32,000 bases of DNA from Legionella bononiensis (GTDB lineage: Bacteria > Pseudomonadota > Gammaproteobacteria > Legionellales > Legionellaceae): assembly GCF_016786415.1 (NCBI RefSeq), contig NZ_JADWVN010000016.1; one strand, 5' to 3'. Both the position numbers and the translations under genes were made by a program. Positions 7,653 through 23,674 of the stretch are shown piece by piece; within the stretch, counting starts at the first letter, position 1, and every line of letters starts with the position of its first letter. The notes below the pieces were generated by a model that was not told where the DNA came from, made no database searches, and worked only from the letters and a program-made list of their open reading frames with translations.

Positions 7653-9330
7653 TTACTTGCTCCTCTTGAGATTCCATAGGTAACCATAATGAATTTTCTT
7701 TTGCACATCGTTTTGCAAGGTCATATCCTGCATCAGCATGTCTCATTACTCCGGTTGCCGGATCATTATGTAAGACTCGGGCCAATCGTTGTGCTGCTTT
7801 CGCAGTGCCATCCGCTACAATAACGACACCAGCATGTTGAGAGAATCCCATGCCAACACCACCTCCATGATGAATACTGACCCAGGTAGCTCCACTGGCA
7901 CAATTTAACAATGCATTAAGTAAAGGCCAGTCCGAGACAGCGTCGCTGCCATCCAACATCCCCTCAGTTTCTCTATTAGGGCTGGCAACTGATCCGGAGT
8001 CCAAATGATCTCGTCCGATAACTATGGGCGCTTTCACTTCTTTATTTTTAACCATTTCATTAAATGCCAAGGCTAATCGAGCTCGGTCCTTTAAACCAAC
8101 CCAGCAAATTCTGGCAGGAAGCCCCTGAAAAGCGATTCTCTCTCTGGCCATATCAAGCCATTGATGCAAGTGTTTATCATGCGGAATCAGTTTCTTGACC
8201 ATCCTATCAGTAGCGTAGATGTCTTCAGGATCCCCTGATAAGGCAACCCATCTGAAAGGTCCAATTCCTTCACAAAATAAGGGTCTGATATAAGCAGGAA
8301 CAAATCCCTCAAATGAAAAGGCCTGTTCTTCCCCTGCTTCCAATGCCATTTGTCGAATGTTATTTCCATAATCAAATACAGGTATTCCTTTCTTTTGAAA
8401 TTGAAGCATGGCATGCACTTGAATAGCCATTGATTTTTTAGCAGCGTCGACAACTTGTGCAGGATCTGTTTTTCTCATGTCACTGGCCTGCTCCAAAGTC
8501 CAACCAGCAGGAAGATATCCGTTCAACGGATCATGAGCACTGGTTTGGTCAGTGACCAGGGATGGATGAGCGCCACGTTCAATCAATTGAGGATAGATTT
8601 CTGCGGCATTACCCAATATTGCTACGGATATAGGTTGTTTTTTTTGACATGACTCATTAATCCATGCCAAGGCCTCATCAAGATTATCAGTAAATTTATC
8701 AAGATATTTCGTTTTAATTCGTTTTTCTATTCGACTTAAATCACACTCAACGGCAAGAACACTGGCGCCAGCCATAGTGCCAGCTAATGTTTGTGCTCCA
8801 CCCATACCCCCTAATCCACCTGTTAGAATCCAACGACCTGATAAATCGCCGTTATAATGTTTTTTAGCAGCAGCAATAAAAGTTTCATAGGTACCTTGAA
8901 CAATCCCTTGAGAACCAATATATATCCAGCTTCCAGCGGTCATTTGGCCATACATCATCAGGCCTTTTTTATCCAACTCATTAAAATATTCCCAATTAGC
9001 CCAACGCGGAACTAAATTGGAATTGGCAATAAGAACTCGTGGCGCGTCTTCATGGGTCGTAAAAACACCAACGGGTTTTCCTGATTGAATTAATAAAGTC
9101 TGATCATCATCCAATACTTTTAATACCTGGACGATTTTATCAAAACAATTCCAGTTTCGGGCTGCCTTCCCCAGCCCACCATAAACAATTAATGAATCCG
9201 GATCTTCTGCTACATCGGGATCCAAATTATTGCATAACATTCGTAAAGCAGCCTCGGTCAACCAACTCTTGGTTTGTTTTTCCGTGCCTCTATTCGCAGT
9301 AATTACCCGCTTATTCTTGTTATCATTCAT
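7645..9330 (-). CDS. hutU: Urocanate hydratase
   Basis: Typical urocanase blocks ([43 protein letters not shown]). The ORF track starts at 9372, but the ATG at 9330 ([10 protein letters not shown]) has GGAG 8 nt upstream and gives a canonical N-terminus. Confidence 0.93.
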
Positions 9331-9590
9331 CAAGAATTCTCCATTTCTAACAAAATTAGAAACATCATACACGAGACAACTTTCTGCGTGAATGCAGTAT
9401 TAAGTTAAATTCATTGATTCAGACACTTTAGGGCGAATTGGGAACACACCTGCTGATGGAATTAATATACAGAGACATTAAGTTGCCTGTTACCCACAAA
9501 ACGCCTCAATAACCCCGTAATATGACATCCTGAATGCAAGGATTGCAACTAGCATTAAGTTTGTCTTAATAAAATACTCAATGTTTCATT

Positions 9591-9673
9591 TCAAAAATTA
9601 TCAAGATCTCGCTAAAAATAGCCTTCTCCCCCTGGGAGAAGGCTATTCTTGCGAGATCTCGATAACTTTTTGA
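9591..9673. repeat. About 83-bp near-perfect palindrome downstream of mshE (probable bidirectional terminator or palindromic element)
   Basis: Core arms: aatagccttctccc (9617-9630) and gggagaaggctatt (9634-9647) with a 3-nt loop. Outer arms: agatctcgc (9604-9612) and gcgagatct (9651-9659). Flanks: tcaaaaattatc and gataactttttga, symmetric apart from one indel, which supply A-runs and T-runs on both sides. Confidence 0.6.
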
Positions 9674-9742
9674 ATTGAACAATGTAAGAAGGGATCTCTT
9701 GAAACTATGAGGAGCTTGCTTTTGAATGATCTGACTCGACTT

Positions 9743-11503
9743 TTATCCTTTTTCTTGATTTAACTCTTCATTTTTAGACGGAGGTTCAGTTTCCCTCCTT
9801 AAAAACTCTTCATCTAATTGCCCTACCACTCGAATAGCCTCTGCAATTGAAGTCGTCCCGTCCTTAACCAGCTCAAGGACTGATTCGGATAATGGATGAT
9901 AAGTTTTACACGCTAATGCTGCTTTGACAAAAGCTGCTGAATCATTCTGGCGTAAAGCATTCAGCATATCCGTATTTAGCTCCAATAACTCATAAATTCC
10001 CACTCGTCCATAATAACCGCTGTAGTTACAATGCGAGCATCCTACTCCTTTTTTAAAAGAAAGTTTAGGATCAACCTTCATTGATAGAAGCCAGATTAAC
10101 TCATGTTCATCAGGTTTTTCTGTATAAATACAGAATTTACAAAGTGTACGAACTAACCTTTGACCGATGATTGCCTTTACTGCAGAGGCGACCATATAAC
10201 CTTCAACCCCCATATCGATTAATCGAATAGCTGAAGTCATGGCATCATTAGTATGCAAGGTAGCAAGTACCAAATGACCCGTAACAGCTGCTCGCATTGC
10301 GATTTGAGCGGTTTCTGGATCACGGATTTCACCCACCATAATAACATCTGGATCCTGGCGCAGCATGGCACGTAGAACTCGTGCAAAAGTCAAATCGATC
10401 TTGGGGTTAACCTGTACCTGATTAATTCGGCTGATGCGATATTCGATAGGATCCTCAACCGTTATAATTTTACGCTCGGGTAAATTAAGCCTGGCGAGAA
10501 TACTGTATAAAGTTGTTGTTTTACCACTTCCTGTAGGACCAGTAACCAAGAGCATCCCATAAGGCTTGGAATAGATTTCTTCGATACGTTTTACTGTTTC
10601 AGGATCAATTCCAAGTTGACTTAAATCCGTCACTTCACTGGATTGATTCAGTAATCGCATTACTACGGCTTCCCCATTCGCGGTTGGCAAGGTGGATAAA
10701 CGTACATCAAATGAATTACCCTTGATTTTAAAATTAAAGCGACCATCCTGTGGAATTCGTTTTTCAGAAATATCCAGATGGGCACGCAGCTTTAATCGCT
10801 GAATCAAGGCACTGACAATACGCTTTTCATCTAAGATATTCTCATGAAGCTGGCCATCGATACGAAAACGAATACGTAACGATTTTTCATCAGGTTCAAT
10901 ATGAATATCTGATGCTCTGGCTTGAACTGCATCATGAAACAGGGAGTTTAAGAGTTTTACTACAGGTGCCTGCTCATCACTTTCTTGTAGTTCATCAAAC
11001 AACTCATCTTCTTTTCCGCTCAACTCCTCAATCATCTCTCCAGAAAGCTCATGGGCAAAAGTTGATATTTCCTGAGTCCGGCGATAAATTCTATCTATTG
11101 CATTTAATAACGACATCTCGCTGATAACGGCTAATTTTAACGGCTTTTTTAATACCTTTGAAATCGCATCAAAAGCAGTAATATCTTGAGGGTCAGCCAT
11201 CCCAACTAATAATTCACCATCTTTCTCACCAAGAACCAATGCACGACAACGTCGTGCGTATGTTTCAGGTAACAAATGAGTATATTCAGGTGAAAGTTCG
11301 TATTTATCCAAATCTATATATGGAATATTCAATTGTTTGGCAAAAAGTTCAAGAACATCATGCTCCGAAACAACGCCCATATTTATCAGGATTCTTCCAA
11401 ATTTATCACCGGTTTTTTTTTGCAACTCCATAGCCTGATCAAGAGTCTCCTGGTTAATTAAGCCTGCATTAAGCAAAATCTCACCAAGTCGTATACGCTT
11501 CAT
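9743..11503 (-). CDS. mshE: MSHA-type pilus extension ATPase MshE (GspE/PilB family) with N-terminal c-di-GMP-binding MshEN domain
   Basis: Two tandem 24-residue MshEN motifs at the N-terminus (RLGEILLNAGLINQETLDQAMELQ, KKTGD spacer, KFGRILINMGVVSEHDVLELFAKQ). Walker A GPTGSGKTT, Asp box, Walker B/His box, and tetra-Cys CKFC...CSHC. Confidence 0.9.
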   Translation of the reverse strand: MKRIRLGEILLNAGLINQETLDQAMELQKKTGDKFGRILINMGVVSEHDVLELFAKQLNIPYIDLDKYELSPEYTHLLPETYARRCRALVLGEKDGELLVGMADPQDITAFDAISKVLKKPLKLAVISEMSLLNAIDRIYRRTQEISTFAHELSGEMIEELSGKEDELFDELQESDEQAPVVKLLNSLFHDAVQARASDIHIEPDEKSLRIRFRIDGQLHENILDEKRIVSALIQRLKLRAHLDISEKRIPQDGRFNFKIKGNSFDVRLSTLPTANGEAVVMRLLNQSSEVTDLSQLGIDPETVKRIEEIYSKPYGMLLVTGPTGSGKTTTLYSILARLNLPERKIITVEDPIEYRISRINQVQVNPKIDLTFARVLRAMLRQDPDVIMVGEIRDPETAQIAMRAAVTGHLVLATLHTNDAMTSAIRLIDMGVEGYMVASAVKAIIGQRLVRTLCKFCIYTEKPDEHELIWLLSMKVDPKLSFKKGVGCSHCNYSGYYGRVGIYELLELNTDMLNALRQNDSAAFVKAALACKTYHPLSESVLELVKDGTTSIAEAIRVVGQLDEEFLRRETEPPSKNEELNQEKG

Positions 11504-11505
11504 AA

Positions 11506-12516
11506 CTATCCTTGTATTTTTTTCAAACGATTTTGAGCATATGCCCGAACCACCGTTTCACTATCCGGACTTTGGCTTGCCCGTATGTACGCTTCCTTTG
11601 CTTGATTCAGATCATGGGTGTATTCAAGCGAAATGGCATATCCTAACCAATACTGACCATTATTCGGATCAATCTGAATTAATGACTTAAATATTCCGCC
11701 TGACTCAACGATTTTCCCCTCACCTTGAAGTGCTGCAGCCAAAGTGCCATAAAAATCGGGATAGGTTTCTATGGGAGGATGATAGTTGGATAAATATTTC
11801 ACTGCTTCAGCTGCTTTACCCTGTTCAAGAATTAATCTTCCCTTTATCGAAATAAGTGGTATATCTAAAGGCGTGTGTTTTAACCCTTCATTAACTACTG
11901 CTGTTGCCAAATCAAAATCACCATAGGTTAGATATAAAGATGCCAGATTTTCACTGGCATTCACTGCATTAGGAATTTTATCTAAAATTTCCTGTAATAG
12001 TTCTATTGCACGATCATCACGTCCCTCTTCGATTGATTGCAGTGCTTTATTCATTTGGGCATCATGCCATTCAGTAAGCGTTTGAGGCGCATAAACTTTA
12101 TTTACGGTTGTCTCTTCTGGTTCATTCTGACTCTCCACCCAATCAGGCACATCATTCTGCTCAACAGCTAATTGAGGAGCCGGTGGTAATTCAGATTCAA
12201 CAGCGTGCACGGGAGGAAGGGCAGGAATATAACTTATAGGCTTTATTGGTTCTAATGGCGCAGGACGTGAAAGAGAGTCTGCTATTACTATTGCAGGATC
12301 CTCCTGAGTTGGTGCTTTAGATTTTGATAATGAGTCACCAGCAATACTGATCAAGACCATTCCCGTGAGAATTATAAGCAGAAAAACACCGCCTGCCAGC
12401 AATCCCCACTTTATTCTAGCCAAATTATTACTGGGAACAGCCTGAAGAAGCGGAATTGGATTTTTAGTTCGTTGTTGTTTGGAAAGATCATTTAAGAGAT
12501 CATTAAGCAAACTCAT
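11506..12516 (-). CDS. mshN: MshN-like TPR-repeat pilus biogenesis protein (N-terminal TM, Pro-rich linker, TPR C-terminus)
   Basis: Located between the mshM-like and mshE genes. One TM (WGLLAGGVFLLIILTGMVLI), a Pro-rich spacer, then TPR-like helices. The track start at 12537 is TTG; the ATG at 12516 overlaps the mshM stop as ATGA and is preferred. Confidence 0.7.
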   Translation of the reverse strand: MSLLNDLLNDLSKQQRTKNPIPLLQAVPSNNLARIKWGLLAGGVFLLIILTGMVLISIAGDSLSKSKAPTQEDPAIVIADSLSRPAPLEPIKPISYIPALPPVHAVESELPPAPQLAVEQNDVPDWVESQNEPEETTVNKVYAPQTLTEWHDAQMNKALQSIEEGRDDRAIELLQEILDKIPNAVNASENLASLYLTYGDFDLATAVVNEGLKHTPLDIPLISIKGRLILEQGKAAEAVKYLSNYHPPIETYPDFYGTLAAALQGEGKIVESGGIFKSLIQIDPNNGQYWLGYAISLEYTHDLNQAKEAYIRASQSPDSETVVRAYAQNRLKKIQG

Positions 12517-13424
12517 AAAGTTAATCCGTAATACCAAATCATGATAAAGAATACCAATACACCCATCGCTCCGATACCGAGAAAGGGTTTTATATAAGGC
12601 CGCCAGAGGAAGAGTTCGGAGCTTTCTGTATCAGCAATTGCTCGATTCACCGCATGACTATTAACCAAAGATTTACCCTGCCCATAAGCTACCAAAAGTG
12701 ACTTGTGACAAAGAATATTCAATAATCGAGGTAATCCTCCACTGGCCTTATATAATCGTCGCTTCGCATACGATGTAAATAAACAACCGTACGTATAACC
12801 TGCCTTTGCTAAACGATGACTTAAATACTTATCCAGATCACCTCGGGCCAGCGGTTGTAATTCATATGAAAAAGTGAATCGCTGTTTTAGTTGACGAAGA
12901 TTAATCTGAGCCAATTTAACGTCTAATTCAGGCTGACCAAAAAGGACTACCTGGAGCAGTTTTCTTTCCTCAGTTTCAAGGTTAGTCAGAAGTCGAACAG
13001 CCTCAAGACATGAATCAGGTAAAGCCTGTGCTTCATCAATGATCAATACTGTTTTTTTTCCAGCCCGATGTAAATCAAGAAGTCGCTGATTAATCGCTTC
13101 AAGCAGTTGATATTGTGTCCAATTTTCTTCTGGTTTAACACCTAGTTCACTTGCAACAGCAAAACGTAAGCCATCTGCGGTCTGATCGGGATTAGGTATG
13201 TACGCTGTAACATATTCATCTTTCAAACTATTTAATAAAATTCTACAGATCAAAGTTTTTCCAGTGCCAATTTCACCCACAATTTTAATAAAACCTTCAC
13301 CTTGAGAAAGACTTAGCAAGAGAACATTTAATGCTTCCTGGTGGCTAGGTAGTTCACAAAAAAACTCTGTATTTGGCGTGAGTGTAAACGGCGCTTTAGT
13401 CAATCTAAAATGTTCTAAATACAT
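12513..13424 (-). CDS. mshM: MshM (ExeA-like AAA+ ATPase) pilus biogenesis protein
   Basis: Walker A GEIGTGKT, Walker B VLIIDEAQ, ExeA-like layout and a C-terminal TM segment. A strong GGGAGAGGGAG sits directly upstream of the ATG. Confidence 0.8.
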   Translation of the reverse strand: MYLEHFRLTKAPFTLTPNTEFFCELPSHQEALNVLLLSLSQGEGFIKIVGEIGTGKTLICRILLNSLKDEYVTAYIPNPDQTADGLRFAVASELGVKPEENWTQYQLLEAINQRLLDLHRAGKKTVLIIDEAQALPDSCLEAVRLLTNLETEERKLLQVVLFGQPELDVKLAQINLRQLKQRFTFSYELQPLARGDLDKYLSHRLAKAGYTYGCLFTSYAKRRLYKASGGLPRLLNILCHKSLLVAYGQGKSLVNSHAVNRAIADTESSELFLWRPYIKPFLGIGAMGVLVFFIMIWYYGLTL

Positions 13425-13439
13425 CTCCCTCTCCCCAGT

Positions 13440-15197
13440 TTATCGTGTGCTCAGATTCTCTTTTGATTTTGGACCCAGCACAATTGGAGCTTCTCCTTGA
13501 GTACCATAGATATCAGGCCGATCTCCCAAATGAAAACCACGCTTAAGACTTGCAATTCTTCGAGTAGTATCCGTAAGATCTTTAATGTTGCTTTTCTGGT
13601 TAACAATGGTTGCTTTTAATAAAATCACCAGTTCACTTTTGTCGGAGTTTTGCTTGGTTCGACGTACCAAGGTACCTAAAAAGGGAATGTTACCAAACCA
13701 GGGTAGTTGAGCAATACCCTCTGTCGTTGCATCTTGCATCAACCCACCAATGACCACTACCTGACCATTTTTGGAATGGACTATAGTATCAGACTCTCGG
13801 ATGGTGCTGTTGGCCAATGGCAGATCCAGAACACCACCTTGTGTACCCAAATCAATCACTTTTCGCTGATCTTTTACAAGGCTTACAGAAGGATGTATAT
13901 GCAGAGTAACTTGTCCATTGGGATCAATTTGAGGGGTAACATCGAGGGTAATCCCAGAAAAGAATGGAGTTAAATTCACATTTAATGTGGGCTGCGTAAC
14001 TAACCCTTGCGATACGATGTTTTGGTTCTGAGACACGTTAGTAACAAAAAACTCATCAAATCCCACTTTAATTGCAGCCTTCTGATTATTCATAGCTGAT
14101 ACACGTGGACTGGATAAAACCTGCACATTACCTTGGAGCTCAAGAGCCTGGATATAGGTGGTGAAATCACGGGGATTCCAATGGATATCGATTCCAAAAC
14201 CCTGACCAGCAGCTCGAATAGCCGCACTTGAAAAATCGGCATTAGGTATGTCAACGTTCGTTCCAGTGAAATTCGACAGCGCATTAAGCTTTGCACCAAA
14301 AAGTTTCCAGTCAATGCCCATTTGAAACTCATTACTCAGATTGACCTCAAGAATTTTGGCTTCAAGAATGACCTGACGATCCATACTGTTCTGCACAACA
14401 TCCAGATACTTTTCGACTTGTTTGAGCTCTTTTGGCATAGCCCTGACAACAATGATTCCAGCAACAGGATTAACTGTGACTGAACGACCATCCGTTTTAC
14501 CAATAATATTTTCGAGAGTAAGCTTTAACGATTTCCAAAAATCGATATCACTTTTGGTTTCAACAGCGCCGATCACATTACTGTAACTTTGATTATTATT
14601 AATATTGGTAGGCAAAGAAGTCGTAGAGGTTGTTCCAGCTGTCCCTTGATTGTTTGAACCAACAGAAGTGACCTCTCCATTGCTTACGGTCATATTAGAG
14701 CTGCCCTTACGCTGCAACTCCAGGTAATTCACATTATAAATTTGGGTTTTTAAAGAATTAGGAAGTATTTCATAGCCGCCCTGAATTGGAATATAGGCGT
14801 AACCATAAACATCTTCAATGGATTGAAGTACTTGTTCAACAGTAACCTGTTTAAGGCTTAATGTAATAGTGCCTTTAATTTCAGGACTCACAACCATATT
14901 GGTTGATGTATCCGCAACAAGACCCATAAAAAAAGCCTGGGCAGGTACATTTTTCACTGCAATATCAAAACGTTGATTACTTGAACGAGCCCCTCCGGAG
15001 CGTACTTTCAAACTGGGTAAAAGTGCTTGAACGGCGTTACGATGAGGCATTCTGCTGTCTTTCGCCATTAACGTTTTATTATTAGCAATCCCTGTTTGCA
15101 ATTCATTATCCATTTCATCAATTGCAGTACCTTTAACCGGCTTATGCATATTACAGGCTGTGAGGAGCAAAAGAAGTATAACTGTATATTTTTTCAT
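13440..15197 (-). CDS. mshL: Pilus secretin MshL (GspD/PilQ superfamily), lipoprotein
   Basis: Lipobox LLLLLTAC|N. Secretin C-terminal domain blocks (VLSSPRVSAMNNQKA, IPFLGTLV...ELVILLKATIV). The start overlaps the mshK stop as ATGA. Confidence 0.88.
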   Translation of the reverse strand: MKKYTVILLLLLTACNMHKPVKGTAIDEMDNELQTGIANNKTLMAKDSRMPHRNAVQALLPSLKVRSGGARSSNQRFDIAVKNVPAQAFFMGLVADTSTNMVVSPEIKGTITLSLKQVTVEQVLQSIEDVYGYAYIPIQGGYEILPNSLKTQIYNVNYLELQRKGSSNMTVSNGEVTSVGSNNQGTAGTTSTTSLPTNINNNQSYSNVIGAVETKSDIDFWKSLKLTLENIIGKTDGRSVTVNPVAGIIVVRAMPKELKQVEKYLDVVQNSMDRQVILEAKILEVNLSNEFQMGIDWKLFGAKLNALSNFTGTNVDIPNADFSSAAIRAAGQGFGIDIHWNPRDFTTYIQALELQGNVQVLSSPRVSAMNNQKAAIKVGFDEFFVTNVSQNQNIVSQGLVTQPTLNVNLTPFFSGITLDVTPQIDPNGQVTLHIHPSVSLVKDQRKVIDLGTQGGVLDLPLANSTIRESDTIVHSKNGQVVVIGGLMQDATTEGIAQLPWFGNIPFLGTLVRRTKQNSDKSELVILLKATIVNQKSNIKDLTDTTRRIASLKRGFHLGDRPDIYGTQGEAPIVLGPKSKENLSTR

Positions 15198-15535
15198 CTA
15201 CGTTTTGTCCACAGCCTTTTTCCAAATAAATACAAGATGACCTTGCGGCCAGAGTACAACAATACCACATGATTTTTATCAATAGCAAGGACGCGTGCCC
15301 CGTTAATGGAACTGCCAACACTGACAATTTGTTCATTTATCATTGCGAGTCGCCTCATTCGTCCAATCAATATACTTTGAAGATTAAAAGGGGTACCTTT
15401 ATCTTTAGCTACAGGCTCCTCCGTGTTTACTTTAGGTTTGGTCGGGTCACTTAAATACGCCAGGCCAATATTCGGAATCAGCAAAAAAAACAGGAAGATG
15501 AAAGGGCAGAATAATTTGGAGTACCGGTTACTCAT
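15194..15535 (-). CDS. mshK: MshK-like small pilus biogenesis protein
   Basis: 113 aa with an N-terminal hydrophobic signal/anchor. Sits immediately upstream of the secretin, as mshK does in Vibrio MSHA loci. ATGA coupling at both ends. The assignment rests mainly on synteny. Confidence 0.55.
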   Translation of the reverse strand: MSNRYSKLFCPFIFLFFLLIPNIGLAYLSDPTKPKVNTEEPVAKDKGTPFNLQSILIGRMRRLAMINEQIVSVGSSINGARVLAIDKNHVVLLYSGRKVILYLFGKRLWTKRR

Positions 15536-16269
15536 GGGGTAACTCCCTGCGCCACATTAGTCGTATCGGTAGGTAGTTTCAAAGTATAGAACTCAATCTC
15601 CGCGATCCCTTCTGGATACTTTTTGACGGTATAAGTAAATTTATCCCAATACAGACTCCAATTGAGCCCTTCCAGGCGCTTTAAATAATTCATTATAGGA
15701 AAATAGTTACCTTTTAAGATTAATCGGTAATGGGTATGCACTACATTCATTCGGTTTGATGCTTTCTGATTCGATGAGGCGTCACCAGACGAAACTTGAT
15801 TTGTTGTCGGTTGAGGTTGAATTACAGCAGGTTGAGGTATGGTTGCTAAATCAACAATGGTTACCCCAAAAGTTTGTTTCAACATGTCATGCAACAATTT
15901 AGCTAAATCACGACTGCTGATGTAACGACGACGATAACGAGCAAACTTTTTTTCAATTTCATTCAATTGACTCATTAAATCTTTATAATCATTTAAAAAC
16001 TGGACAGTATCAGGATTGTTTAGCAAGATATGAATAACTGTTTGCTTTTGCTTTAATTCATTAACTTGAGTCTCCAATTGCTGCGTTTGAAGGACACTGT
16101 CATTAATCGCTTTTTTTTGAGGATAATGTACTGCTAAGAACCATAATCCAAAAAGTAACGAAAGAACAATGATTAATAGACTGAATCTATCACGCTCGCT
16201 TAATTGTTCTATTCTGAGTTTAAACAACTGATAATGTCTTAAAAACAATAAGTGAATACTCATAGTCAT
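15532..16269 (-). CDS. mshJ: MshJ (PilO-like) bitopic inner-membrane alignment protein
   Basis: One N-terminal TM (FSLLIIVLSLLFGLWFLAV) followed by a coiled-coil-like stretch and a C-terminal domain. Position is between the PilN-like gene and mshK. ATGA overlaps at both ends. Confidence 0.6.
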   Translation of the reverse strand: MTMSIHLLFLRHYQLFKLRIEQLSERDRFSLLIIVLSLLFGLWFLAVHYPQKKAINDSVLQTQQLETQVNELKQKQTVIHILLNNPDTVQFLNDYKDLMSQLNEIEKKFARYRRRYISSRDLAKLLHDMLKQTFGVTIVDLATIPQPAVIQPQPTTNQVSSGDASSNQKASNRMNVVHTHYRLILKGNYFPIMNYLKRLEGLNWSLYWDKFTYTVKKYPEGIAEIEFYTLKLPTDTTNVAQGVTP

Positions 16270-16901
16270 TTCCCCCCGGAGTCCGTTTTAGTTGGGTCTT
16301 CAGAATCATCTTCAGAACCAAGATCATCCGTTGCTATAGAAAATTTTACGTAGGGGCGATTGGTTATTGCTTTTACATAAAACAAATTAAACACTATTTT
16401 TTTAAAAGCTGCTGTTTTCATTAAACGATTCATCAGCACTGATACATCATCAGGACGAACGGCATAACCACCAAGAGTGATACTGTCACTGTCCAAATTA
16501 ATTGAAATTTGATTAAACCATAAAGATGCAGGTACAGTTTGAGCCAATGCATACATAAATCCGGAAAACCCGGGTCTTACAATCAGATGTTCTAAAGCGG
16601 CATAATCAGCACTTCGCTCCTCAACCTGATTCCTCAATGCCTGAATCTGATTTGATAATGAAATATTATTACTCAATAGAGGGTATTTTTTGACCAACTC
16701 GGTGTAGGTTTGGCTTTCATTAACTAATGTTTGTTGGAGTTCATTGAGATTACTACGCGCATTATATATGTGTACTCCCTTGAAAACAGAAATAATAAAA
16801 AGAAAAACAGTCACCCCGATAACTATCCAAACCATTTTTGTAACGGATAGTCTACTGCTGTCCTTAGGGAGATCGCGAAGAAAATTGATTGATTGAATCA
16901 T
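16266..16901 (-). CDS. PilN-like fimbrial assembly protein (equivalent to the C-terminal half of a fused MshI)
   Basis: N-terminal INFL..LP motif resembling the PilN INLLP box, a single TM (MVWIVIGVTVFLFIISVF), a coiled-coil region and an acidic C-terminal tail. The start shares one nt with the upstream stop (TAATG). Confidence 0.55.
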   Translation of the reverse strand: MIQSINFLRDLPKDSSRLSVTKMVWIVIGVTVFLFIISVFKGVHIYNARSNLNELQQTLVNESQTYTELVKKYPLLSNNISLSNQIQALRNQVEERSADYAALEHLIVRPGFSGFMYALAQTVPASLWFNQISINLDSDSITLGGYAVRPDDVSVLMNRLMKTAAFKKIVFNLFYVKAITNRPYVKFSIATDDLGSEDDSEDPTKTDSGGK

Positions 16902-17824
16902 TATTTCTCCCCGTTCAAATGCATTAAGGCGCCGCCAATTGCATAAAATGCCTCAGCCATAACCGGAGGAGTTATCTTCTGTTCGGACTTAAAATAGGCA
17001 TTAACATCAAGTAAAAATACATCCTTTACAAGCTCTTCCTTTAATCGAAGAAATAAATCTTCTGCAGCATAGAAGCTTGGGGTAAAGAAAATTTTCTTAG
17101 GTTCAGGCAATTTAAGTTCAATTAAACAATAATCAATGGACCGCTGTATTTCCAGAACCATATCATGAATTGCAGTACTCTCAGGTTCAATTATCGAACG
17201 ACTGATTGACAATGCCCGAGAGAGATACAAGCTGTCTTTAAAATAGATATGCAACCTGCAAACATTTGCGTCATAACTGACTACTATAGTCGGTGATTCA
17301 GGATCTATAGGAGCACGCCTCAGCAATTGGGACAACGCCAGCTCAGCAATGCTTATTGATGAAATATTAAGCAAACAACGCTTCAACAATTCGACTTTAT
17401 TTATTAATTCATTTTGAGGCGTTACTGCGACAAAAACACGTTTTCGCAAGCCACCAGCACCGTGTAGCGGTACCATAAATGTATCCACAGCGATGTCGTT
17501 TAACGGGTAATCTATCATTCCTTTCAGATGCCAGCGTAAGGCTTTGGCCATCTCCTGCTCTGGAACTTCAAGCGCATCCATTAACAACAGCTGATATAAG
17601 CCCGGTGATAAAATAACCTGGCAAGGGAGACCAATTAAACTATATCGCTCAATTGCCTCTGATATTCCCTTGGTGAACAGTTCTGGCTTTGGATCTGGAA
17701 AATAATGGTGTTCACAAAAGCGTATGCTGCTACCCTCTTCAAGTTCTACAAGACTAAAACCATGTTCACTTAATAAACATGATAGTTGTCGTGAAGGTTT
17801 TTTCGCTTTGCCCAAGCCGAACAT
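16901..17824 (-). CDS. mshI: MshI (PilM-like cytoplasmic) pilus assembly protein
   Basis: 307 aa, no TM, first gene of the I-J-K-L-M-N-E block. Size and position fit a PilM-like actin-fold component. The assignment is by synteny, not by recognised motifs. Confidence 0.55.
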   Translation of the reverse strand: MFGLGKAKKPSRQLSCLLSEHGFSLVELEEGSSIRFCEHHYFPDPKPELFTKGISEAIERYSLIGLPCQVILSPGLYQLLLMDALEVPEQEMAKALRWHLKGMIDYPLNDIAVDTFMVPLHGAGGLRKRVFVAVTPQNELINKVELLKRCLLNISSISIAELALSQLLRRAPIDPESPTIVVSYDANVCRLHIYFKDSLYLSRALSISRSIIEPESTAIHDMVLEIQRSIDYCLIELKLPEPKKIFFTPSFYAAEDLFLRLKEELVKDVFLLDVNAYFKSEQKITPPVMAEAFYAIGGALMHLNGEK

Positions 17825-17932: not shown

Positions 17933-18412
17933 TTATTTCATGTTATTTAAAAAAACAGTATTAATCAGTTGAATGGTTTCATCCCCTTCTTTTAATGTCA
18001 TATCGATTGTAATTGCTCTAACCAGGGCTGGAGTAGCAGTGCTATTAAAATTTGATTGATAATACGTCAATGTAAATCCCGTTACCACATCGCTAAGAGG
18101 CTGGGACGATATTCCTGTACGAGTGAGTGTTGGCCCAGGACTAACCCAAGTGTAAGTAATTGATTCACCATTTGATGTGGTAAAACTGACATTTGCAGAA
18201 TTAATCACCGAAAAACTTACTGCCTGTTCCAGTTCTTTAGTCATTCGAGCCATCGCCAATGCGGCCTGATTATTTAAACCTGTAACATTTATCCCTGTAA
18301 AATAACTTGTAAATCCCGCATTTAACATCACCGAAGCAATTGAAAAGATGATCCCGGAAAGGACCATTACCATAATCATTTCAATGAGGGTAAAGCCCTT
18401 AGTTGTTCGCAT
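17933..18412 (-). CDS. Minor prepilin (MshO/PilW-like) with class III signal peptide
   Basis: MRTTKG|FTLIEMIMVMVLSGI: Gly-1, Phe+1, Glu+5. The ORF track starts at 18442 (16-residue leader); the ATG at 18412 gives a 6-residue leader. The start choice is uncertain. Confidence 0.75.
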   Translation of the reverse strand: MRTTKGFTLIEMIMVMVLSGIIFSIASVMLNAGFTSYFTGINVTGLNNQAALAMARMTKELEQAVSFSVINSANVSFTTSNGESITYTWVSPGPTLTRTGISSQPLSDVVTGFTLTYYQSNFNSTATPALVRAITIDMTLKEGDETIQLINTVFLNNMK

Positions 18413-18800
18413 AGTTGTATACGTAGGCCTTGATAATGGCATCTCCTGCTCCTGAAACAGTAATCGTAATAATTTTAGGGTTGGTTCCGGATATAATTGG
18501 TGTACTCACTGTGAAATTATTGGCAGCAGCGTAGGTCGAAAGAGGAGTGCATATTGCTAAACCAGGGGAAGTAGTGCATGGATCAGAAAGTGTTGTATAC
18601 CCATTGATGGAGCGATTCATCAAAATAATTTGCATCCGCGCATTGGCAAGAAAACTTGCCTGAGTAATCGATGTGGGTGTATTGGCACGACTGAGGGATT
18701 CATTCAGACCAACCAATAATCCTCCGGCAATAATGCCAATCAGTACAACGAAAGCGATCAGTTCAATCAGGGTAAAGCCTTGTTGTAATCCTTTTCTCAT
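18399..18800 (-). CDS. Minor prepilin (MshD-like) with class III signal peptide
   Basis: MRKGLQQG|FTLIELIAFVVLIGI with Glu+5 and one Cys pair (DPC...AIC). The track start at 18809 is GTG; the ATG at 18800 has AGGTGA 5 nt upstream and is preferred. Confidence 0.75.
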   Translation of the reverse strand: MRKGLQQGFTLIELIAFVVLIGIIAGGLLVGLNESLSRANTPTSITQASFLANARMQIILMNRSINGYTTLSDPCTTSPGLAICTPLSTYAAANNFTVSTPIISGTNPKIITITVSGAGDAIIKAYVYNYANN

Positions 18801-18809
18801 GGTGTTCAC

Positions 18810-20315
18810 CTAATGATTACGCCAGACAGTAGGAGTTGCACTTACTGCACCTCCGCCACCTGGAATACCCGTCACCGAGTTTAATGTAAAAGTCCCTCCC
18901 AAAGCGGTGCTTGTCCAATTAGTACCATCAAAATGATAGGCATTAGCAGAACTGGAACCAACGGCCATACAATCATTAGTTGCATTACAATGGACTCCTA
19001 ATAAATTGACAGAGCTTGGGGCTGTTTGGGCAACACAGGAGGCAGCGGAAGTGATAGGTAATGAACATTTAAAATTAACCCCATTATTCCCTACCAAAAT
19101 ACACAGACTGGTATTTGGACAATGTACGGAATTTAATGAATTATTAGTCAGAGTATAAGGACCAGTCCACGCTCCATTGAAATAGTACACACGTCCATTA
19201 CTTCGTACTGCAACACAACTATTCGTTTGAGGGCAATCTACATCATTCATAGTACTGGCCAGACTAGTCAGATTATTAAATGGGACTGTGGTATTCGAAG
19301 AAAAATTGTAGGCACGATTACTTCCTACCGACATACAAACACCACTGATACAGCTCACGCCTAGCAGGTTAAAATTATTGCTGGCGAGATAAGAAAAAGT
19401 CGCAGGAAAAGTATAACGATACATCAATCCCCTTGGAGGTGATACACCACTGCCAACTATCCAGCAATTGGTGCTTGTATCGCAGGAAACATCTTGAAAA
19501 CCTCCACCGGATATACCCGACAATGCCAGTGCCCATGACACACCATTATATAAATAAATTGAACCAACTGAAGCAGAAGTGCTTCCGACAGCAATTCCGT
19601 TAGTCAAGGTATTGAATATTCCTGTAAAGGTAAAATTGACTGGTCCTGTCAACACGGTTGACCACGAAGAACCATCAAACTTGAGGATAACACCACTGGT
19701 GCTGCTGTTAACCCCTGCGGCAAAATAAGTCGAAGGATTAGATAATAATACCGCCTGTGACAATGTAACCTGGCCACTGGGTGATGTTGCTGAGGGGGAG
19801 CTTCCCTGACCGATAATAATATATTGAATCTGACTTGCGGAAGCACCGCTGGAGTGAGCTGCTGCTGCAGTACCATTTTGCCCTCGACGGGCATGTTGCA
19901 ATGTTGCTCCACTGATTCCATCGTAGTATATGGTCTCTGAATCAACAGTAATCGCGCCAAATGTCGCTAAACCCGAAACTGAATTTAAAGGAATTACAGT
20001 CGATGAAGCGGTTATAGCAGAAGATAGAGTAGTAGAACCAGTATTTTTAGTACAACTGTACTGATACTCCCCTTGCCCGCTGACAGTAACTGCTGGCTGC
20101 CAACTCCCGTCACACCATGCTGTTGCAAGTGTGAGCTCGTAGGTTCCTTGTTCAATGCCTGTCTGTGCCAGATCGTAAGCACGATTTGCAGAAATGGAAC
20201 TGACACTCGAATTCGTGCCACTGAGTGTCATCGCAACAAATGCACTTGCAAGTGCGGCTACAATAACCAGGAGTATGGCAATAACCATCATTAAAAAACC
20301 GCGCTGATTATCCAT
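18810..20315 (-). CDS. Large PilX_N/MshP-like pseudopilin lacking Glu5, fused to a Cys-paired repeat (beta-propeller-like) domain; putative pilus-tip adhesin
   Basis: N-terminus MDNQRG|FLMMVIAILLVIVAALASAF has a pilin-like hydrophobic helix but Val at +5. Ser/Thr/Gly/Asn-rich. 14 Cys arranged as 7 close pairs. About 7-8 repeats of ..(L/V)xxVxC-x4-6-C-x-x-VG-x-x-G...(D/N)G..W from residue about 197 to the C-terminus. Confidence 0.7.
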   Translation of the reverse strand: MDNQRGFLMMVIAILLVIVAALASAFVAMTLSGTNSSVSSISANRAYDLAQTGIEQGTYELTLATAWCDGSWQPAVTVSGQGEYQYSCTKNTGSTTLSSAITASSTVIPLNSVSGLATFGAITVDSETIYYDGISGATLQHARRGQNGTAAAAHSSGASASQIQYIIIGQGSSPSATSPSGQVTLSQAVLLSNPSTYFAAGVNSSTSGVILKFDGSSWSTVLTGPVNFTFTGIFNTLTNGIAVGSTSASVGSIYLYNGVSWALALSGISGGGFQDVSCDTSTNCWIVGSGVSPPRGLMYRYTFPATFSYLASNNFNLLGVSCISGVCMSVGSNRAYNFSSNTTVPFNNLTSLASTMNDVDCPQTNSCVAVRSNGRVYYFNGAWTGPYTLTNNSLNSVHCPNTSLCILVGNNGVNFKCSLPITSAASCVAQTAPSSVNLLGVHCNATNDCMAVGSSSANAYHFDGTNWTSTALGGTFTLNSVTGIPGGGGAVSATPTVWRNH

Positions 20316-20724
20316 TCACAAACCCCGTTTCAGGTGCCACTGTCAGCGCGTTTGAACCTTCACCTGTTGCAGTCACTGTAATAGTCGCTGTGGATGAATT
20401 GGATGGAGTACCTGATGCATCAAAAGTGATGCTGCTGCCGGATAAAGAAACCCCTGCCGGCATGGCAACGTTGACTGCACCTCGAGGAGGGGTTGGAGAT
20501 ATAAAATAATTAGTCGCGGAAATATTGATGGTATAAGATGTATTTAAGCTCATGGCCAACGTTTGAGTGTAACGAATATCTCTCTTTAATTGCTCCGAGA
20601 TTGAAATTAAATTAAAGCTTCCCGCAGAAGGGTAATTCATGATTACCGCTACAGCTAAAATACTAATCACAACGAGGACCGCAATAAACTCGATAAGGGT
20701 AAAACCGTGTGTAGGTCGCATCAT
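20308..20724 (-). CDS. Minor prepilin (MshC/GspH-like) with class III signal peptide
   Basis: MMRPTHG|FTLIEFIAVLVVISILAV with Glu+5 and no Cys. Its end overlaps the 501-aa gene start by 8 nt. Confidence 0.75.
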   Translation of the reverse strand: MMRPTHGFTLIEFIAVLVVISILAVAVIMNYPSAGSFNLISISEQLKRDIRYTQTLAMSLNTSYTINISATNYFISPTPPRGAVNVAMPAGVSLSGSSITFDASGTPSNSSTATITVTATGEGSNALTVAPETGFVNG

Positions 20725-20832: not shown

Positions 20833-21216
20833 TTAATTAATGCCCATCCCGCTAAATGTAGCAGTTACAGCAGTTCCACCAGTAGGTGTAAAAGTTAATG
20901 TACACGTTGCCGTAGCGCCTGCTGCTATTGGGGCTGGAGTTATTGCGTATAACCCACCGTTAGTAGGCATGCCACCAGCCAATACCCCCCATGTATTGCA
21001 ATTAGTTACAGCAATTCCTTTCGCACTATTGGCGGTTCGTGCAGCAAAATTAACCGACATGGCAGACGATAACCCTCCTGCAACACCATTAACTGCTGCT
21101 TGAGCAGCATCAGATTTTAAGTCAATATAAAGAGGTACTGCTACCACGGATAAAATACCCAAAATTACAATAACCATTACTAATTCAATCAGGGTAAAGC
21201 CTTTGTTCAAGTTCAT
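20833..21216 (-). CDS. MshA-type pilin (candidate major subunit)
   Basis: MNLNKG|FTLIELVMVIVILGILSVVAVPLYIDLKSDAAQAA is the MSHA-pilin style N-terminus. Has a C-terminal Cys pair (TNC...ATC). Has its own strong RBS (GGGAG) and a 263-bp upstream intergenic region. Confidence 0.8.
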   Translation of the reverse strand: MNLNKGFTLIELVMVIVILGILSVVAVPLYIDLKSDAAQAAVNGVAGGLSSAMSVNFAARTANSAKGIAVTNCNTWGVLAGGMPTNGGLYAITPAPIAAGATATCTLTFTPTGGTAVTATFSGMGIN

Positions 21217-21479
21217 CAGTCACTCCCATATAAAACACGTACAGATCACATCGTTTTGACACTCAAAATCGAGGCAATGCATCCATTTGATTAACTCTCA
21301 AGTCCATAATTAAGTATAGACCAGGATTTATAGTGAACACAAACTCTATTTATAAAATCAATAAAGCTAAGTAATTGACTAATAGACAATTTTTATCAGA
21401 TATACAATAAATCATTACCTGATTATCCAAAATGCTCAATCCACGATATAAAATTGTGGATGAACGTACGTGTATGTTA

Positions 21480-21932
21480 CTAACAACCGGCCGTATTTAT
21501 TGCAATCACCGGTGCTACACCTGCAGCTGTTGATGCAGTATAAGTAACACTGCACGTAGCAGGAGTTGGCGCACCAGCCGCTTGCCATGTTGCAGTAGTA
21601 GCAGTTTGAGTCAAAGTAAAACCAGGTACCGGTACATAAGATATCGCAACGTTGATACCTCCAGCAGCTGATGCTGGATATTTATGGAGCAAATTTACTG
21701 TAGTTCCATCCATAATAATAGAGGGTTGAGAATCAAGGTAATTATTTACTATAACGGCTGAATGAGTTATTTGACTGGCTGAAGCCACTGAACCAAAAAT
21801 ACCATTTATAGCTGAAATCCGTGCTTGAGTAGTAAAATCATAGTACTTGGGAATTGCCACTGCAGCTAATATTCCTAGTAGTATAATGACAATAATTAAT
21901 TCGATAAGAGTAAAACCACGCTGCTTCACCAT
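21480..21932 (-). CDS. MshA/MshB-type pilin (second candidate major subunit)
   Basis: MVKQRG|FTLIELIIVIILLGILAAVAIPKYYDFTTQARISA. Has a C-terminal Cys pair (ATC...AGC at the very C-terminus). GGGGAG lies 4 nt upstream of the ATG. Confidence 0.8.
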   Translation of the reverse strand: MVKQRGFTLIELIIVIILLGILAAVAIPKYYDFTTQARISAINGIFGSVASASQITHSAVIVNNYLDSQPSIIMDGTTVNLLHKYPASAAGGINVAISYVPVPGFTLTQTATTATWQAAGAPTPATCSVTYTASTAAGVAPVIAINTAGC

Positions 21933-21983: not shown

Positions 21984-22451
21984 TTACCACTCATGACAAC
22001 CCCATAGACGCATATCCTGACACCATCTATAAGAACTCACTGTAAATTCAACTATACCCTTATTACAGTATAGATCAACTACAATTTGATGGTCATTTTT
22101 TGACCAAAAATATCGTTTACCACGTACTTTATAGGTCAGTTGATGAAGAACAGGATTATATTGCCAATATCCACTTTCCTGTAGTTCCGGTGACGCGAAT
22201 CCTGATGCCTGAAGAATAAAATCAGGTTCATTCAGATAGGAGCAATCAGGATTAGTCTGCTTCAACAGTATGCTTTTTGAATGAACCAGGTTTGTTATCA
22301 TGTTGAGATTCATACTTACGGTTGTTTTTTCTACCGTGGCTTCGAGCAGTTCAAAATAACTTAATAGTGTGCCCGCCAAAATGGCAATCAAACAAAGAAC
22401 GATTGCAAGATGCACTCGAGATAATTGGTAGGATCTTCCTAAGTTAATCAT
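21984..22451 (-). CDS. mshF: MshF-like small membrane protein
   Basis: Sits directly after mshG, as in Vibrio MSHA loci. One TM (VHLAIVLCLIAILAGTLL). The preferred start is the ATG at 22451, which forms ATGA with the mshG stop; the track start at 22481 would overlap mshG by 34 nt. The assignment is by synteny. Confidence 0.5.
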   Translation of the reverse strand: MINLGRSYQLSRVHLAIVLCLIAILAGTLLSYFELLEATVEKTTVSMNLNMITNLVHSKSILLKQTNPDCSYLNEPDFILQASGFASPELQESGYWQYNPVLHQLTYKVRGKRYFWSKNDHQIVVDLYCNKGIVEFTVSSYRWCQDMRLWGCHEW

Positions 22452-23674
22452 CGTTTCTGTATCAAACTGGCCATGCTCCACATTGGTAAAAGTACACCAA
22501 GAGCAAGGATTAATACCATTCCCGCCATCACAACCAGTAAAATAGGCTCAATAGCGTCGCTTAATCGGACAATGTCATAATTGATTTCCCTCTGATAATA
22601 TTCTGCTACTTCATCTAATAACTCGTCAATTGTTCCACTTTCTTCACCAAGGCTAATCATCTGTATAATTAAAGGCGGAAATAGCTCTGTTTGAGTGATG
22701 GCAGCAGATATAGTATTGCCCCGAACGATTAAATCGGTAACCGACTTGATTTTATTTGCGACATAGAGATTTCCCGTTGAAGCACCAACCATTTGAATGC
22801 CCTCTACAGCAGGAATACCAGCTCGTAAAACCAATGCAAGCAGACGTGCGAAACGAGCAAGAAGAATACGATGGATCAACCAGCCTATGATTGGAATTTT
22901 CAGTTGCAATCGGCCCCAGAAGATAGCCCCTGAATCCGTTTTTAGATAAGCACGAATCCCCAATATAGTGAGTACAGCAAAACCAATCATTAAATACCAA
23001 TAACTCAATATAAAATTGGAACTGGCCATTAGAATACGCGTTGGTAATGGCAACTGACTTTGGAAACTGGCATACAGCTTTGCAAATGATGGAATAACAA
23101 AGACGTTAATGATGAGTAACGCAACCACTATCGCGACGATCACCATGGTTGGATAACGTAAGGCAGTTTTTACCTTTTTGGTAATGTCTACTTCAAGTTC
23201 AAGATAATCTGCAAGATGTAAGAAAATCCTGTCCAGATTTCCCGTATTTTCCCCCACAATAATCAAATTTAGAAAAAAGTCGGAAAATATATTAGGAAAT
23301 TGTGCCATGGCAACATGAAGTGATGTGCCTTTATTTAAAGTGTGTAGAATTTGAATCAAAGCTTCAGATAAGGTTGTGTTATGAGTTGTTTCAGACAGTC
23401 GCTCTACTGATGTAGCTAGAGGAATTCCCGCATGAAGCAATGAATACATCTGTCTGCAAAACATATGGAGTTCAGAATGAGGAACTTTAGAATCAAACCA
23501 CTTAACTTTTTGTTTGGTGGGAGTTGAGCTAGTAGCCGTTGAGGAGGAAATATCAATAGGAATAAGGTTATCAGCTATTAGTTGATTTGCCAGTTCTTCC
23601 GGACTCGAAGCGTTACGCTGTCCAGATATTGATTTACCATTTTGGTCACGAGCCGTGTAAGTATATTGCGGCAT
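22448..23674 (-). CDS. mshG: MshG, polytopic inner-membrane platform protein (GspF/PilC family)
   Basis: 408 aa with the duplicated GspF architecture (two cytoplasmic domains, each followed by TM segments) and typical blocks (LSEAL..L..G.SL, GEE(S/T)G.L...L). First gene of the locus. Confidence 0.88.
   Translation of the reverse strand: MPQYTYTARDQNGKSISGQRNASSPEELANQLIADNLIPIDISSSTATSSTPTKQKVKWFDSKVPHSELHMFCRQMYSLLHAGIPLATSVERLSETTHNTTLSEALIQILHTLNKGTSLHVAMAQFPNIFSDFFLNLIIVGENTGNLDRIFLHLADYLELEVDITKKVKTALRYPTMVIVAIVVALLIINVFVIPSFAKLYASFQSQLPLPTRILMASSNFILSYWYLMIGFAVLTILGIRAYLKTDSGAIFWGRLQLKIPIIGWLIHRILLARFARLLALVLRAGIPAVEGIQMVGASTGNLYVANKIKSVTDLIVRGNTISAAITQTELFPPLIIQMISLGEESGTIDELLDEVAEYYQREINYDIVRLSDAIEPILLVVMAGMVLILALGVLLPMWSMASLIQKR

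Follow-up and report, generated by a model that had tools for sequence, protein, structure and literature searches.

A candidate apical minor pilin with its own β-propeller and a phage tail-fibre-type module in an MSHA-type pilus locus of Legionella bononiensis

Homologues of the minor pilins PilK, GspK and MshP invariably lack the glutamate at position +5 (Glu+5) and are therefore apical (PMC13533445). The last strand of the sheet in PilK-class pilins is provided in cis in GspK and CpaL, and in trans by the last ~10 residues after the PilC/PilY1 propeller, with MshQ modelled as acting likewise for MshP (PMC13533445). Here we analyse a gene on the minus strand (18810..20315) of a 32,000-nucleotide stretch of Legionella bononiensis DNA (the window), which lies in a pilus locus of the mannose-sensitive haemagglutinin (MSHA) type and encodes a 501-residue protein (the target). 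We consider it fairly likely that the target is an apical minor pilin of the PilK/GspK/PilX/MshP class in an MSHA-type pilus, equipped with its own propeller, terminal strand and phage tail-fibre-type module. We infer from this both a location at the tip and a function in adhesion, and the target is probably the pilus tip adhesin.

Among described systems, GspK/XcpX and the PilK/PilX/MshP class resemble the target in lacking Glu+5, in the apical position (predicted for the target) and in being encoded together with H-, I- and J-class minor pilins. GspK also has an extra domain inserted in the pilin fold and a C-terminal strand acting in cis, as we propose for the target, but its insert is an α-domain of ~180 residues located mid-sheet, whilst MshP and PilX are small. 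The PilK-equivalent CpaL/TadG of the Caulobacter crescentus Tad (type IVc) system likewise has an adhesin between the pilin-like domain and a C-terminal strand that completes the sheet in cis, and the Tad system has no separate PilY1. It differs from the target in that the insert is a vWA domain with an adhesion site dependent on metal ions (MIDAS), in that Tad is not an MSHA system, and in that the role of the C-terminal (Cβ) strand has been tested genetically, whereas for the target this role is a prediction.

PilX2, a minor pilin of the PilX type from the T4P-2 system of the Saccharibacteria strain TM7x, is comparable in that its N-terminus is lollipop-shaped, Glu5 and a canonical PilD signal are missing, and the protein carries a heptabladed propeller; it has been proposed as the pilus adhesin, and its deletion halves host binding. 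PilX2, however, belongs to a Patescibacteria system resembling type IVa pili and not to one of the MSHA type, and its propeller is built from RCC1 repeats rather than being Cys-rich and Ycf48/Rax2/tectonin-like as in the target. Neither a tail-fibre-like module nor a returning terminal strand has been reported for PilX2, and we found no sequence relationship between it and the target.

PilC/PilY1 and its proposed MSHA analogue MshQ, like the target, are expected at the pilus tip and contain disulfides (putative in the target), and the PilY1-type layout, in which a seven-bladed propeller is directly followed by a short terminal strand, is copied by the C-terminal 300 residues of the target. PilY1 and MshQ are nevertheless separate Sec-exported non-pilins of at least 1,000 residues with variable N-terminal adhesin domains. 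MshQ is ~1,200 residues long (PMC13533445) and is encoded downstream of mshDOP, so that the 501-residue target is set apart from it by both size and position. The target gives no PF05567 match in Pfam, and a profile search of the PDB at E ≤ 10 returned no PilY1 or PilC chain. We therefore reject true homology to PilY1 or MshQ, given this lack of sequence signal and the pilin-like N-terminus of the target. To our knowledge MshQ, by its annotation, is not a propeller protein.

Modular pilins such as Streptococcus sanguinis PilB and PilC, CofB of enterotoxigenic Escherichia coli and Thermus ComZ share with the target a pilin module onto which a functional module for tip display has been grafted. 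They differ in having canonical class III signals (PilB/PilC) or in belonging to type IVb pilus or competence systems, and their modules (vWA, lectin, β-repeat or β-solenoid) are appended at the C-terminus, not inserted before a returning strand. Modular pilins are widespread and often lack database signatures (Raynaud et al. 2021). The layout of the target fits the definition of this group, namely a pilin module and a module not specific to type IV pili (T4P) in one chain (Raynaud et al. 2021); the survey in that work demanded an IPR012902 (N_methyl) match, which the target lacks. The N-proximal β module of phage tail fibres and tailspikes has the pattern RG-x2-GT-x-A-x2-H in common with the target, in which it is embedded in a pilin-like protein. 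For Legionella pneumophila, a 2026 paper on T4P gives the classical pilVWX/pilY1/fimU/fimT set only.

Architecture of the 501-residue protein

The open reading frame (ORF) is a real, conserved gene and not a chance ORF, and the ORF list places it on the minus strand and bears out the position and the length of 501 residues that an earlier note on this DNA had given. Its product matches an L. bononiensis hypothetical protein at 100% identity, UniRef labels this identical protein as PilX N-terminal domain-containing, and a word-indexed search found 24 full-length or near-full-length homologues (41-87% identity), those with a named source being from Legionella or Fluoribacter. The ATG of the target overlaps the stop codon of the upstream gene for a 138-residue pilin (ATGGATAA), indicating translational coupling between the two. 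Pfam and NCBIfam scans of the target itself gave noise only (DUF1131 at 0.086; an RpoE lipoprotein model at 0.006), and no family match in these databases covers the 501 residues. Full-length homology to a characterised family, which the earlier note had said would count against its proposal of a cap-like pseudopilin fused to an adhesin domain, was looked for and none was found.

The AlphaFold2 (AF2) model of the target, built on the family alignment, has a mean predicted local distance difference test score (pLDDT) of 86.9. From the N-terminus it consists of a helix (residues 3-63), an all-β N-domain (64-195), 28 strands (196-484), a low-confidence linker and a final strand (493-500). The features of the gene are:

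18810..20315, minus strand: whole gene for the 501-residue protein, a putative modular PilK/PilX-class minor pilin (from the ORF list; stop codon 18810-18812 included)
20298..20315, minus strand: leader MDNQRG, residues 1-6, putative prepilin-peptidase site (Gly6 invariant in alignment A4)
20127..20309, minus strand: long α1 helix, residues 3-63, with a hydrophobic N-terminal half followed by a PilX_N-like 'AYDLAQTGIE' (DSSP)
19731..20126, minus strand: all-β N-domain, residues 64-195, with Cys68/Cys88 and with strand 182-191 leading into the propeller (DSSP strands)
19791..20054, minus strand: small β module resembling phage tail fibres, residues ~88-175, DSE-x-IYYDG...RG-x2-GT-x-A-x2-H (Foldseek, PHROGs)
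18864..19730, minus strand: seven-bladed Cys-rich β-propeller, residues 196-484 (28 DSSP strands; Foldseek)
18813..18839, minus strand: C-terminal strand, residues 493-501 (ATPTVWRNH), candidate Cβ strand acting in cis (DSSP, conserved motif)

The protein starts with the leader MDNQRG and continues after Gly6 with FLMMVIAILLVIVAAL, which places Val11 at position +5. This combination of a QRG leader and helix with Val at +5, already remarked on in the earlier note, is confirmed by the ORF translation and by the invariance of Gly6. The same note had taken the loss of Glu5 as the mark of tip or cap subunits, in line with the rule cited above, and the family agrees: across ~70 full-length relatives +1 is F or Y, +5 is V, A, I or L, and none has Glu+5. 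A pilin-like N-terminal helix, on which that proposal also depended, is confidently predicted, being assigned by DSSP to residues 3-63 in the full AF2 model and 2-63 in a model from which the propeller has been deleted. The PilX_N model PF14341, which had been suggested as a check, is matched by 13 of 27 diverse family members at E ≤ 0.1, and the homologue P0109 scores above the Pfam cut-off (27.1 bits vs 25.5, residues 8-58) whilst also aligning with the target family profile end to end in one stretch (E=1.3e-66); the target itself gives no such match. Two features of the PilK class are seen in the target, namely the missing Glu+5 and the clustering of its gene with genes for GspH-like and further minor pilins.

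The C-terminal repeat domain of about 300 residues that had been noticed earlier is real and is modelled as a seven-bladed propeller. Its 28 strands would make up seven four-stranded blades, with strand 475-484 closing blade 1 (a count read from the DSSP string), and Foldseek comparison with the PDB retrieves seven-bladed WD40, NUP43, MEP50, G-beta and Ycf48 structures at E ~1e-7 to 1e-8. The target has 14 cysteines with conserved pairing spacing, and six Cys pairs within the propeller are conserved (278/284, 322/327, 361/367, 399/405, 417/427 and 443/449), a pattern that fits an extracytoplasmic domain stabilised by putative disulfides. Relatives match Rax2 (14 of 27) and PSII_BNR/Ycf48 (five of 27, with P0097 above the Pfam cut-off); the target itself has no Pfam match. 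The relatives that match these propeller models and PilX_N share 25-30% identity with the target. A profile search of PDB sequences returned one marginal match, to the lectin Tectonin 2 (5fsb; E=1.2e-3), which may be a weak hint of lectin character.

Strands 182-191 and 493-500 both lie outside the 28 strands of the propeller. Since the first and last strands of the propeller share blade 1, placing its entry and exit next to each other, the propeller is a topological insertion. We also modelled a propeller-deleted construct, in which residues 1-195 were joined to 485-501 and aligned to full-length homologues, with the linker residues misaligned to the first propeller strand. This construct folds (pLDDT 81.7) and its C-terminus is still a strand (residues 207-211, pLDDT 50-60); because the terminal strand persists without the propeller, its partner would lie in the N-domain. 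The terminal motif reads PTV[WLF][RH]N[QH] in Legionella-clade members, whilst most of the distant relatives have W-[QRK]-[EN]-x-[FY]. From these models, completion of the pilin-like sheet in cis would be the most likely role of strand 493-500.

The N-domain contains the Cys68/Cys88 module described in the earlier note, with both cysteines at least 90% conserved in the Legionella-clade alignment. The conserved segment that the note had placed at about residues 95-165 is likewise present (ITVDSETIYYDGISGATLQHARRGQNGTAAAAHSSGA), and G120, E127, Y131, G145 and H154 are invariant in the same alignment. R144 is invariant in the broader alignment A4, and the segment 'ITVDSETIYYDG...RRGQNGTAAAAHSSGA' is present and conserved. 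Cys68 is invariant, and its partner in the Legionella clade is Cys88. Most of the distant relatives (alignment A4) have no Cys at position 88 but one at the equivalent of Tyr165 ('QxQC'), which suggests that the putative Cys68 disulfide may have moved between neighbouring strands across clades.

The earlier note had linked the pattern to a motif of phage tail-fibre-like proteins, and matches in three databases bear this out. Foldseek searches of BFVD with the N-domain model gave 76 viral matches at E ≤ 1e-3, several of them annotated as tail fibre proteins, the best having E=1.8e-7 and a root-mean-square deviation (rmsd) of 0.9 Å over 73 columns at 36% identity; the module (residues ~88-175) superposes on phage structural proteins at ~1 Å rmsd and 30-39% identity. 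The corresponding search of the PDB retrieved phage tail, baseplate and tailspike proteins, including the JBD30 baseplate and the AP22 and K64-1 tailspikes. When the isolated 77-residue segment was compared with PHROGs, every match (E 3e-4 to 5e-3) was to a family of tail fibre, baseplate, tail or other structural virion proteins; PHROGs 11439, 9851 and 2885 resemble the module. Profile positions 88-178 are the best-matching stretch in giant proteins of 4,000-5,000 residues (P0056, P0151 and P0157), and because the module recurs there alone it is an independent domain. The giant bacterial proteins with the module also hold FG-GAP and cadherin-like repeats. No Pfam model covers the ~75-90-residue module, which might be set up as a domain family of its own. 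An origin of the gene in a prophage, which the tail-fibre-like module might bring to mind, is rejected: its neighbours in the window are pilus, hut and housekeeping genes, with no other phage genes.

The pilus locus and the wider family

The target gene lies between the gene for a GspH-like pilin of 138 residues and those for two other minor pilins (136 and 169 residues), in an operon that ends at mshE and is followed by hutU/hutH (urocanase and histidase). The other genes of the operon, in the direction of transcription, are listed below; the block of MSHA-type machinery extends over 9743..17824 on the minus strand.

22448-23674, minus strand: GspF/MshG-like platform protein (T2SSF 6e-58; GspF 3e-99)
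21984-22481, minus strand: 165-residue ORF in the MshF position, whose GTG start codon overlaps the mshG-like gene (no Pfam/NCBIfam match)
21480-21932, minus strand: 150-residue prepilin, candidate major pilin in the MshA/MshB position (G/FTLIE leader; N_methyl, PilA and GspG N-terminal matches)
20833-21216, minus strand: 127-residue prepilin, candidate major pilin in the MshA/MshB position (G/FTLIE leader; N_methyl, PilA and GspG N-terminal matches)
20308..20724, minus strand: 138-residue prepilin, GspH/ComGD-like minor pilin (ComGD 2.2e-13, GspH 1.7e-8, PF12019 7e-4)
18399..18809, minus strand: 136-residue prepilin in the GspI/PilV/MshD-class position, class weak (N_methyl; PilV 3.8e-3)
17933..18442, minus strand: 169-residue prepilin in the GspJ/PilW/MshO-class position, class weak (ComGF 4.9e-4, PRK10557 3.3e-3)
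16901-17824, minus strand: PilM-like protein (Pfam/NCBIfam)
16266-16901, minus strand: PilN (Pfam/NCBIfam)
15532-16269, minus strand: PilO/T2SSM-like protein (Pfam/NCBIfam)
15194-15535, minus strand: 113-residue ORF in the MshK position (no Pfam/NCBIfam match)
13440-15197, minus strand: MshL secretin (best model MshL TIGR02519, 249.2 bits vs a cut-off of 250.2)
12513-13424, minus strand: MshM-like ATPase, AAA_22 (Pfam/NCBIfam)
11506-12537, minus strand: MshN-like tetratricopeptide repeat protein (Pfam/NCBIfam)
9743-11503, minus strand: MshE ATPase (MshEN PF05157 1e-17; cyclic di-GMP (c-di-GMP) motif NF053729, 68.4 bits vs 38)

This content identifies the locus as MSHA-type: MshL is the best-scoring model for the secretin, the ATPase carries the MshEN domain, and genes occupy the MshM and MshN positions. 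The five small ORFs neighbouring the target were described in the earlier note as canonical prepilins, in agreement with their leaders (G/FTLIE, with Glu+5) and with hidden Markov model matches of each to N_methyl/TIGR02532. That note had further supposed that a single protein stands here in place of MshP and MshQ. This holds in so far as the ORF list and a Pfam scan disclose no MshQ-sized ORF in the operon, but the target gene does not follow the MshO-like gene as it would in the mshOPQ order of Vibrio.

The sole sizeable intergenic gap in the pilin block is a non-coding stretch of 263 bp (21217-21479) between the two major-pilin-like genes, in which scans for promoters and terminators picked up nothing above chance. 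The counts from these scans equalled, or lay close to, those expected from shuffled sequence, and an Rfam scan found nothing. For the protein in the MshM position the best NCBIfam match is an XrtA/PEP-CTERM-associated ATPase (1.4e-65, below cut-off) and for that in the MshN position it is the PEP-CTERM tetratricopeptide repeat lipoprotein PrsT, and these matches point to a kinship of MSHA accessory proteins with the PEP-CTERM/exosortase gene neighbourhood that is already known, and little explained.

An exhaustive profile search for the family returned 41,550 proteins at E ≤ 1e-3, of which 1,552 have E ≤ 1e-30, and dozens of cluster representatives of 480-600 residues match the whole profile in one stretch. 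The impression of a Legionella-restricted family given by the word-indexed search is rejected by these results and by the loci in GTDB genomes. There, metagenome-assembled genomes show the full architecture in Gammaproteobacteria, Legionellales, Coxiellaceae, Acidiferrobacterales, Betaproteobacteria, Nitrospirota and Verrucomicrobia, and propeller-only relatives in Actinomycetota, Dormibacteraeota and Patescibacteria. Family members are unnamed or labelled 'hypothetical protein', or have generic PilX, PilX N-terminal or prepilin-type cleavage/methylation names.

The survey of gene neighbourhoods proposed in the earlier note shows co-occurrence with MSHA genes: at least one homologue of the MSHA machinery is present in the fetched flank of 26 of 29 full-length-like loci, and MshL, MshE or MshM in 22 of them. 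The three exceptions are L010, on a 5-kb contig, and L017 and L023, on contigs of ~13 kb. Propeller-only loci have no MSHA machinery neighbours in the fetched flanks. Arrangements like that in the window are found in Legionella waltersii (L002), at the locus of P0025 (L001; the most distant homologue, 25% identity), where the target homologue comes directly after three pilin-type genes, and at metagenomic loci including L004. The order of the operon is shuffled between species: in L. bononiensis the genes upstream of the minor pilins are the mshG-like platform gene, the 165-residue ORF and both major-pilin-like ones, whilst in L. waltersii and at the P0025 locus mshG comes after mshE, at the far end.

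In two metagenomic MSHA-type loci the target homologue is present as tandem divergent paralogues (538 + 538 and 528 + 549 residues; 8352-9968 and 10001-11617 in L004, the other pair being at the P0146 locus), whilst Legionella has a single copy; the tandem copies may correspond to alternative tips or to binding specificities that have diversified. In Patescibacteria (P0076, 1008 residues; loci L028, L059 and L064) a canonical prepilin N-terminus is likewise joined to related Cys-rich propeller repeats, next to MshE/MshG-like genes. This suggests that pilins may have captured this type of propeller more than once.

Proposed placement in the pilus and alternative explanations

We envisage that the target would be inserted in the inner membrane by its N-terminal hydrophobic helix, with cleavage by the prepilin peptidase after Gly6 being probable from the sequence. 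Because Glu+5 is missing, it should be able to occupy the top position of the filament only, following the rule established for PilK homologues. Synteny and the known PilHIJK complexes suggest that it would form a tip initiation complex with the 138-, 136- and 169-residue minor pilins, and that this complex would prime the process in which MshE, an ATPase responsive to c-di-GMP, polymerises the MshA-like major pilin. The chain would leave the pilin-like domain at strand 182-191, form the disulfide-stabilised propeller and return as strand 493-500, which, as judged from the AF2 secondary structure and conservation, would complete the sheet in cis as in GspK and CpaL. Such a cis strand would explain why the locus needs no MshQ or PilY1 gene. 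At the distal tip the propeller and the tail-fibre-like module might then bind a ligand, possibly a glycan. In function the target would resemble PilK together with the C-terminal half of PilY1 in a single chain. The analysis shows the features of the sequence, the layout of the domains and the conserved operon context; processing by the prepilin peptidase, apical incorporation with the three adjoining minor pilins, strand completion in cis and display at the tip are steps that we infer, whilst glycan binding by the propeller is speculative.

Several observations weigh against placing the target in this class. The target has no PF07963 (N_methyl) or TIGR02532 match at E ≤ 1, whereas all five neighbouring pilins do match, and it has no PF14341 match at E ≤ 1. 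Foldseek comparison of its N-domain with the PDB did not place GspK/XcpX among the top 50 matches, so that membership of the GspK family is unsupported at the level of the fold. The pLDDT of the terminal strand is only moderate (50-71). The assignment of the 136- and 169-residue pilins to the I and J classes is based on position and weak matches to hidden Markov models, and PDB sequence searches with the three adjoining minor pilins gave generic N-terminal pilin matches and no class assignment. As to the proposed function, the Tectonin 2 similarity is marginal and propellers are functionally promiscuous.

An explanation that we think unlikely, but that retains some force, accepts the target as a tip protein and gives its propeller and strand the task of licensing or stabilising the initiation complex, gating the secretin or sensing force, with adhesion secondary or absent. 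In PilC/PilY1 the conserved propeller has been argued to speed assembly of the tip complex or to gate the secretin, with adhesion residing in the variable N-terminal domains (PMC13533445), and CpaL has been implicated in surface sensing. The absence of an identified ligand-binding motif in the target is consistent with such a role, as is the strong conservation of the propeller sequence across phyla, which is more typical of a structural part than of a fast-evolving adhesin. These arguments are harder to square with the tandem divergent paralogues at some loci, which fit a diversification of binding specificity, and with the presence of an extra phage tail-fibre-type module, which is typical of receptor-binding proteins.

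It is less probable still that the target is not a filament subunit at all, its N-terminal segment acting as a Sec signal peptide or anchor (possibly cleaved at A-L-A/S, residues 21-24) and the protein working as a periplasmic or secreted accessory factor in the manner of PilY1. Such an ALA motif can indeed be read in the protein, the lack of both Glu+5 and an N_methyl/TIGR02532 match would be understandable on this basis, and the PilX proteins of TM7x likewise have no predicted PilD signals. It is Gly6 that is invariant in the family, however, and not the ALA motif; the helix is predicted to continue unbroken to residue 63, as in pilins; the PilX_N matches of the relatives cover exactly this N-terminal segment; and the gene is situated within the minor-pilin block.

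The weakest alternative, that the operon encodes a short pseudopilus like that of the type II secretion system (T2SS), with a propeller cap operating inside the periplasm or secretin in, for example, substrate loading or pushing, appeals to the large inserted domains typical of T2SS GspK-class caps, to the high (though below cut-off) scores of the ATPase and platform protein against the GspE and GspF NCBIfam models and to the propeller-like platforms presented by many T2SS substrates (PMC13533445), but is highly improbable in view of a secretin scoring 249 bits for MshL vs 162 for GspD, an ATPase with the MshEN c-di-GMP domain, and the presence of MshM-, MshN- and PilM/N/O-like genes where GspC/L/M are absent.

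We retain the reading of the target as a probable apical minor pilin of the MSHA-type pilus and likely tip adhesin. Going beyond this, one may entertain, as less likely than not, the idea that the family is a cis fusion replacing MshP and MshQ (or PilX and PilY1), in which one chain would bring together cap pilin, propeller and licensing C-terminal strand, and to which capture has added a module of the receptor-binding type that phage tail fibres also have. The comparison with PilX and PilY1 in one chain, drawn in the earlier note, stands as regards the PilX_N-type N-terminus and the seven-bladed propeller followed by a strand, but finds no PilY1 sequence match.

Implications for MSHA-type pili

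No account of a protein of this kind, either in MSHA-type pili or in Legionella, came up in our literature search. The earlier note's statement to that effect stands for MSHA pili, but the underlying idea has precedents in PilX2, CpaL and the modular pilins. The features specific to the family are the MSHA context lacking MshQ, the insertion of a Cys-rich propeller before a conserved strand, the tail-fibre-type module and a broad, unannotated distribution.

The analysis puts forward the likely tip subunit of an MSHA-type pilus that has gone unstudied, although several species of Fluoribacter and of non-pneumophila Legionella have it, as do many environmental lineages. It thereby provides a concrete candidate for binding to amoebae, to biofilms or to particles. 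A propeller and strand of PilY1/MshQ type, elsewhere provided in trans, appear here to be covalently joined to a PilK-class pilin, so that the family lends itself naturally to testing the recently proposed rule by which a terminal strand, in cis or in trans, licenses tip complexes. Two sequence families have been missed by the domain databases, the 500-residue architecture and the ~75-residue module, and defining both should improve the annotation of thousands of 'hypothetical proteins'. If the cis-fusion reading is true, pilus tip adhesins and phage receptor-binding proteins would draw on a common pool of exchangeable modules. The MSHA-type pili of several Legionella species, and those of many uncultured members of the Gammaproteobacteria, Nitrospirota and Verrucomicrobia, would then have an undescribed class of tip adhesins, possibly lectins for host or prey surfaces.

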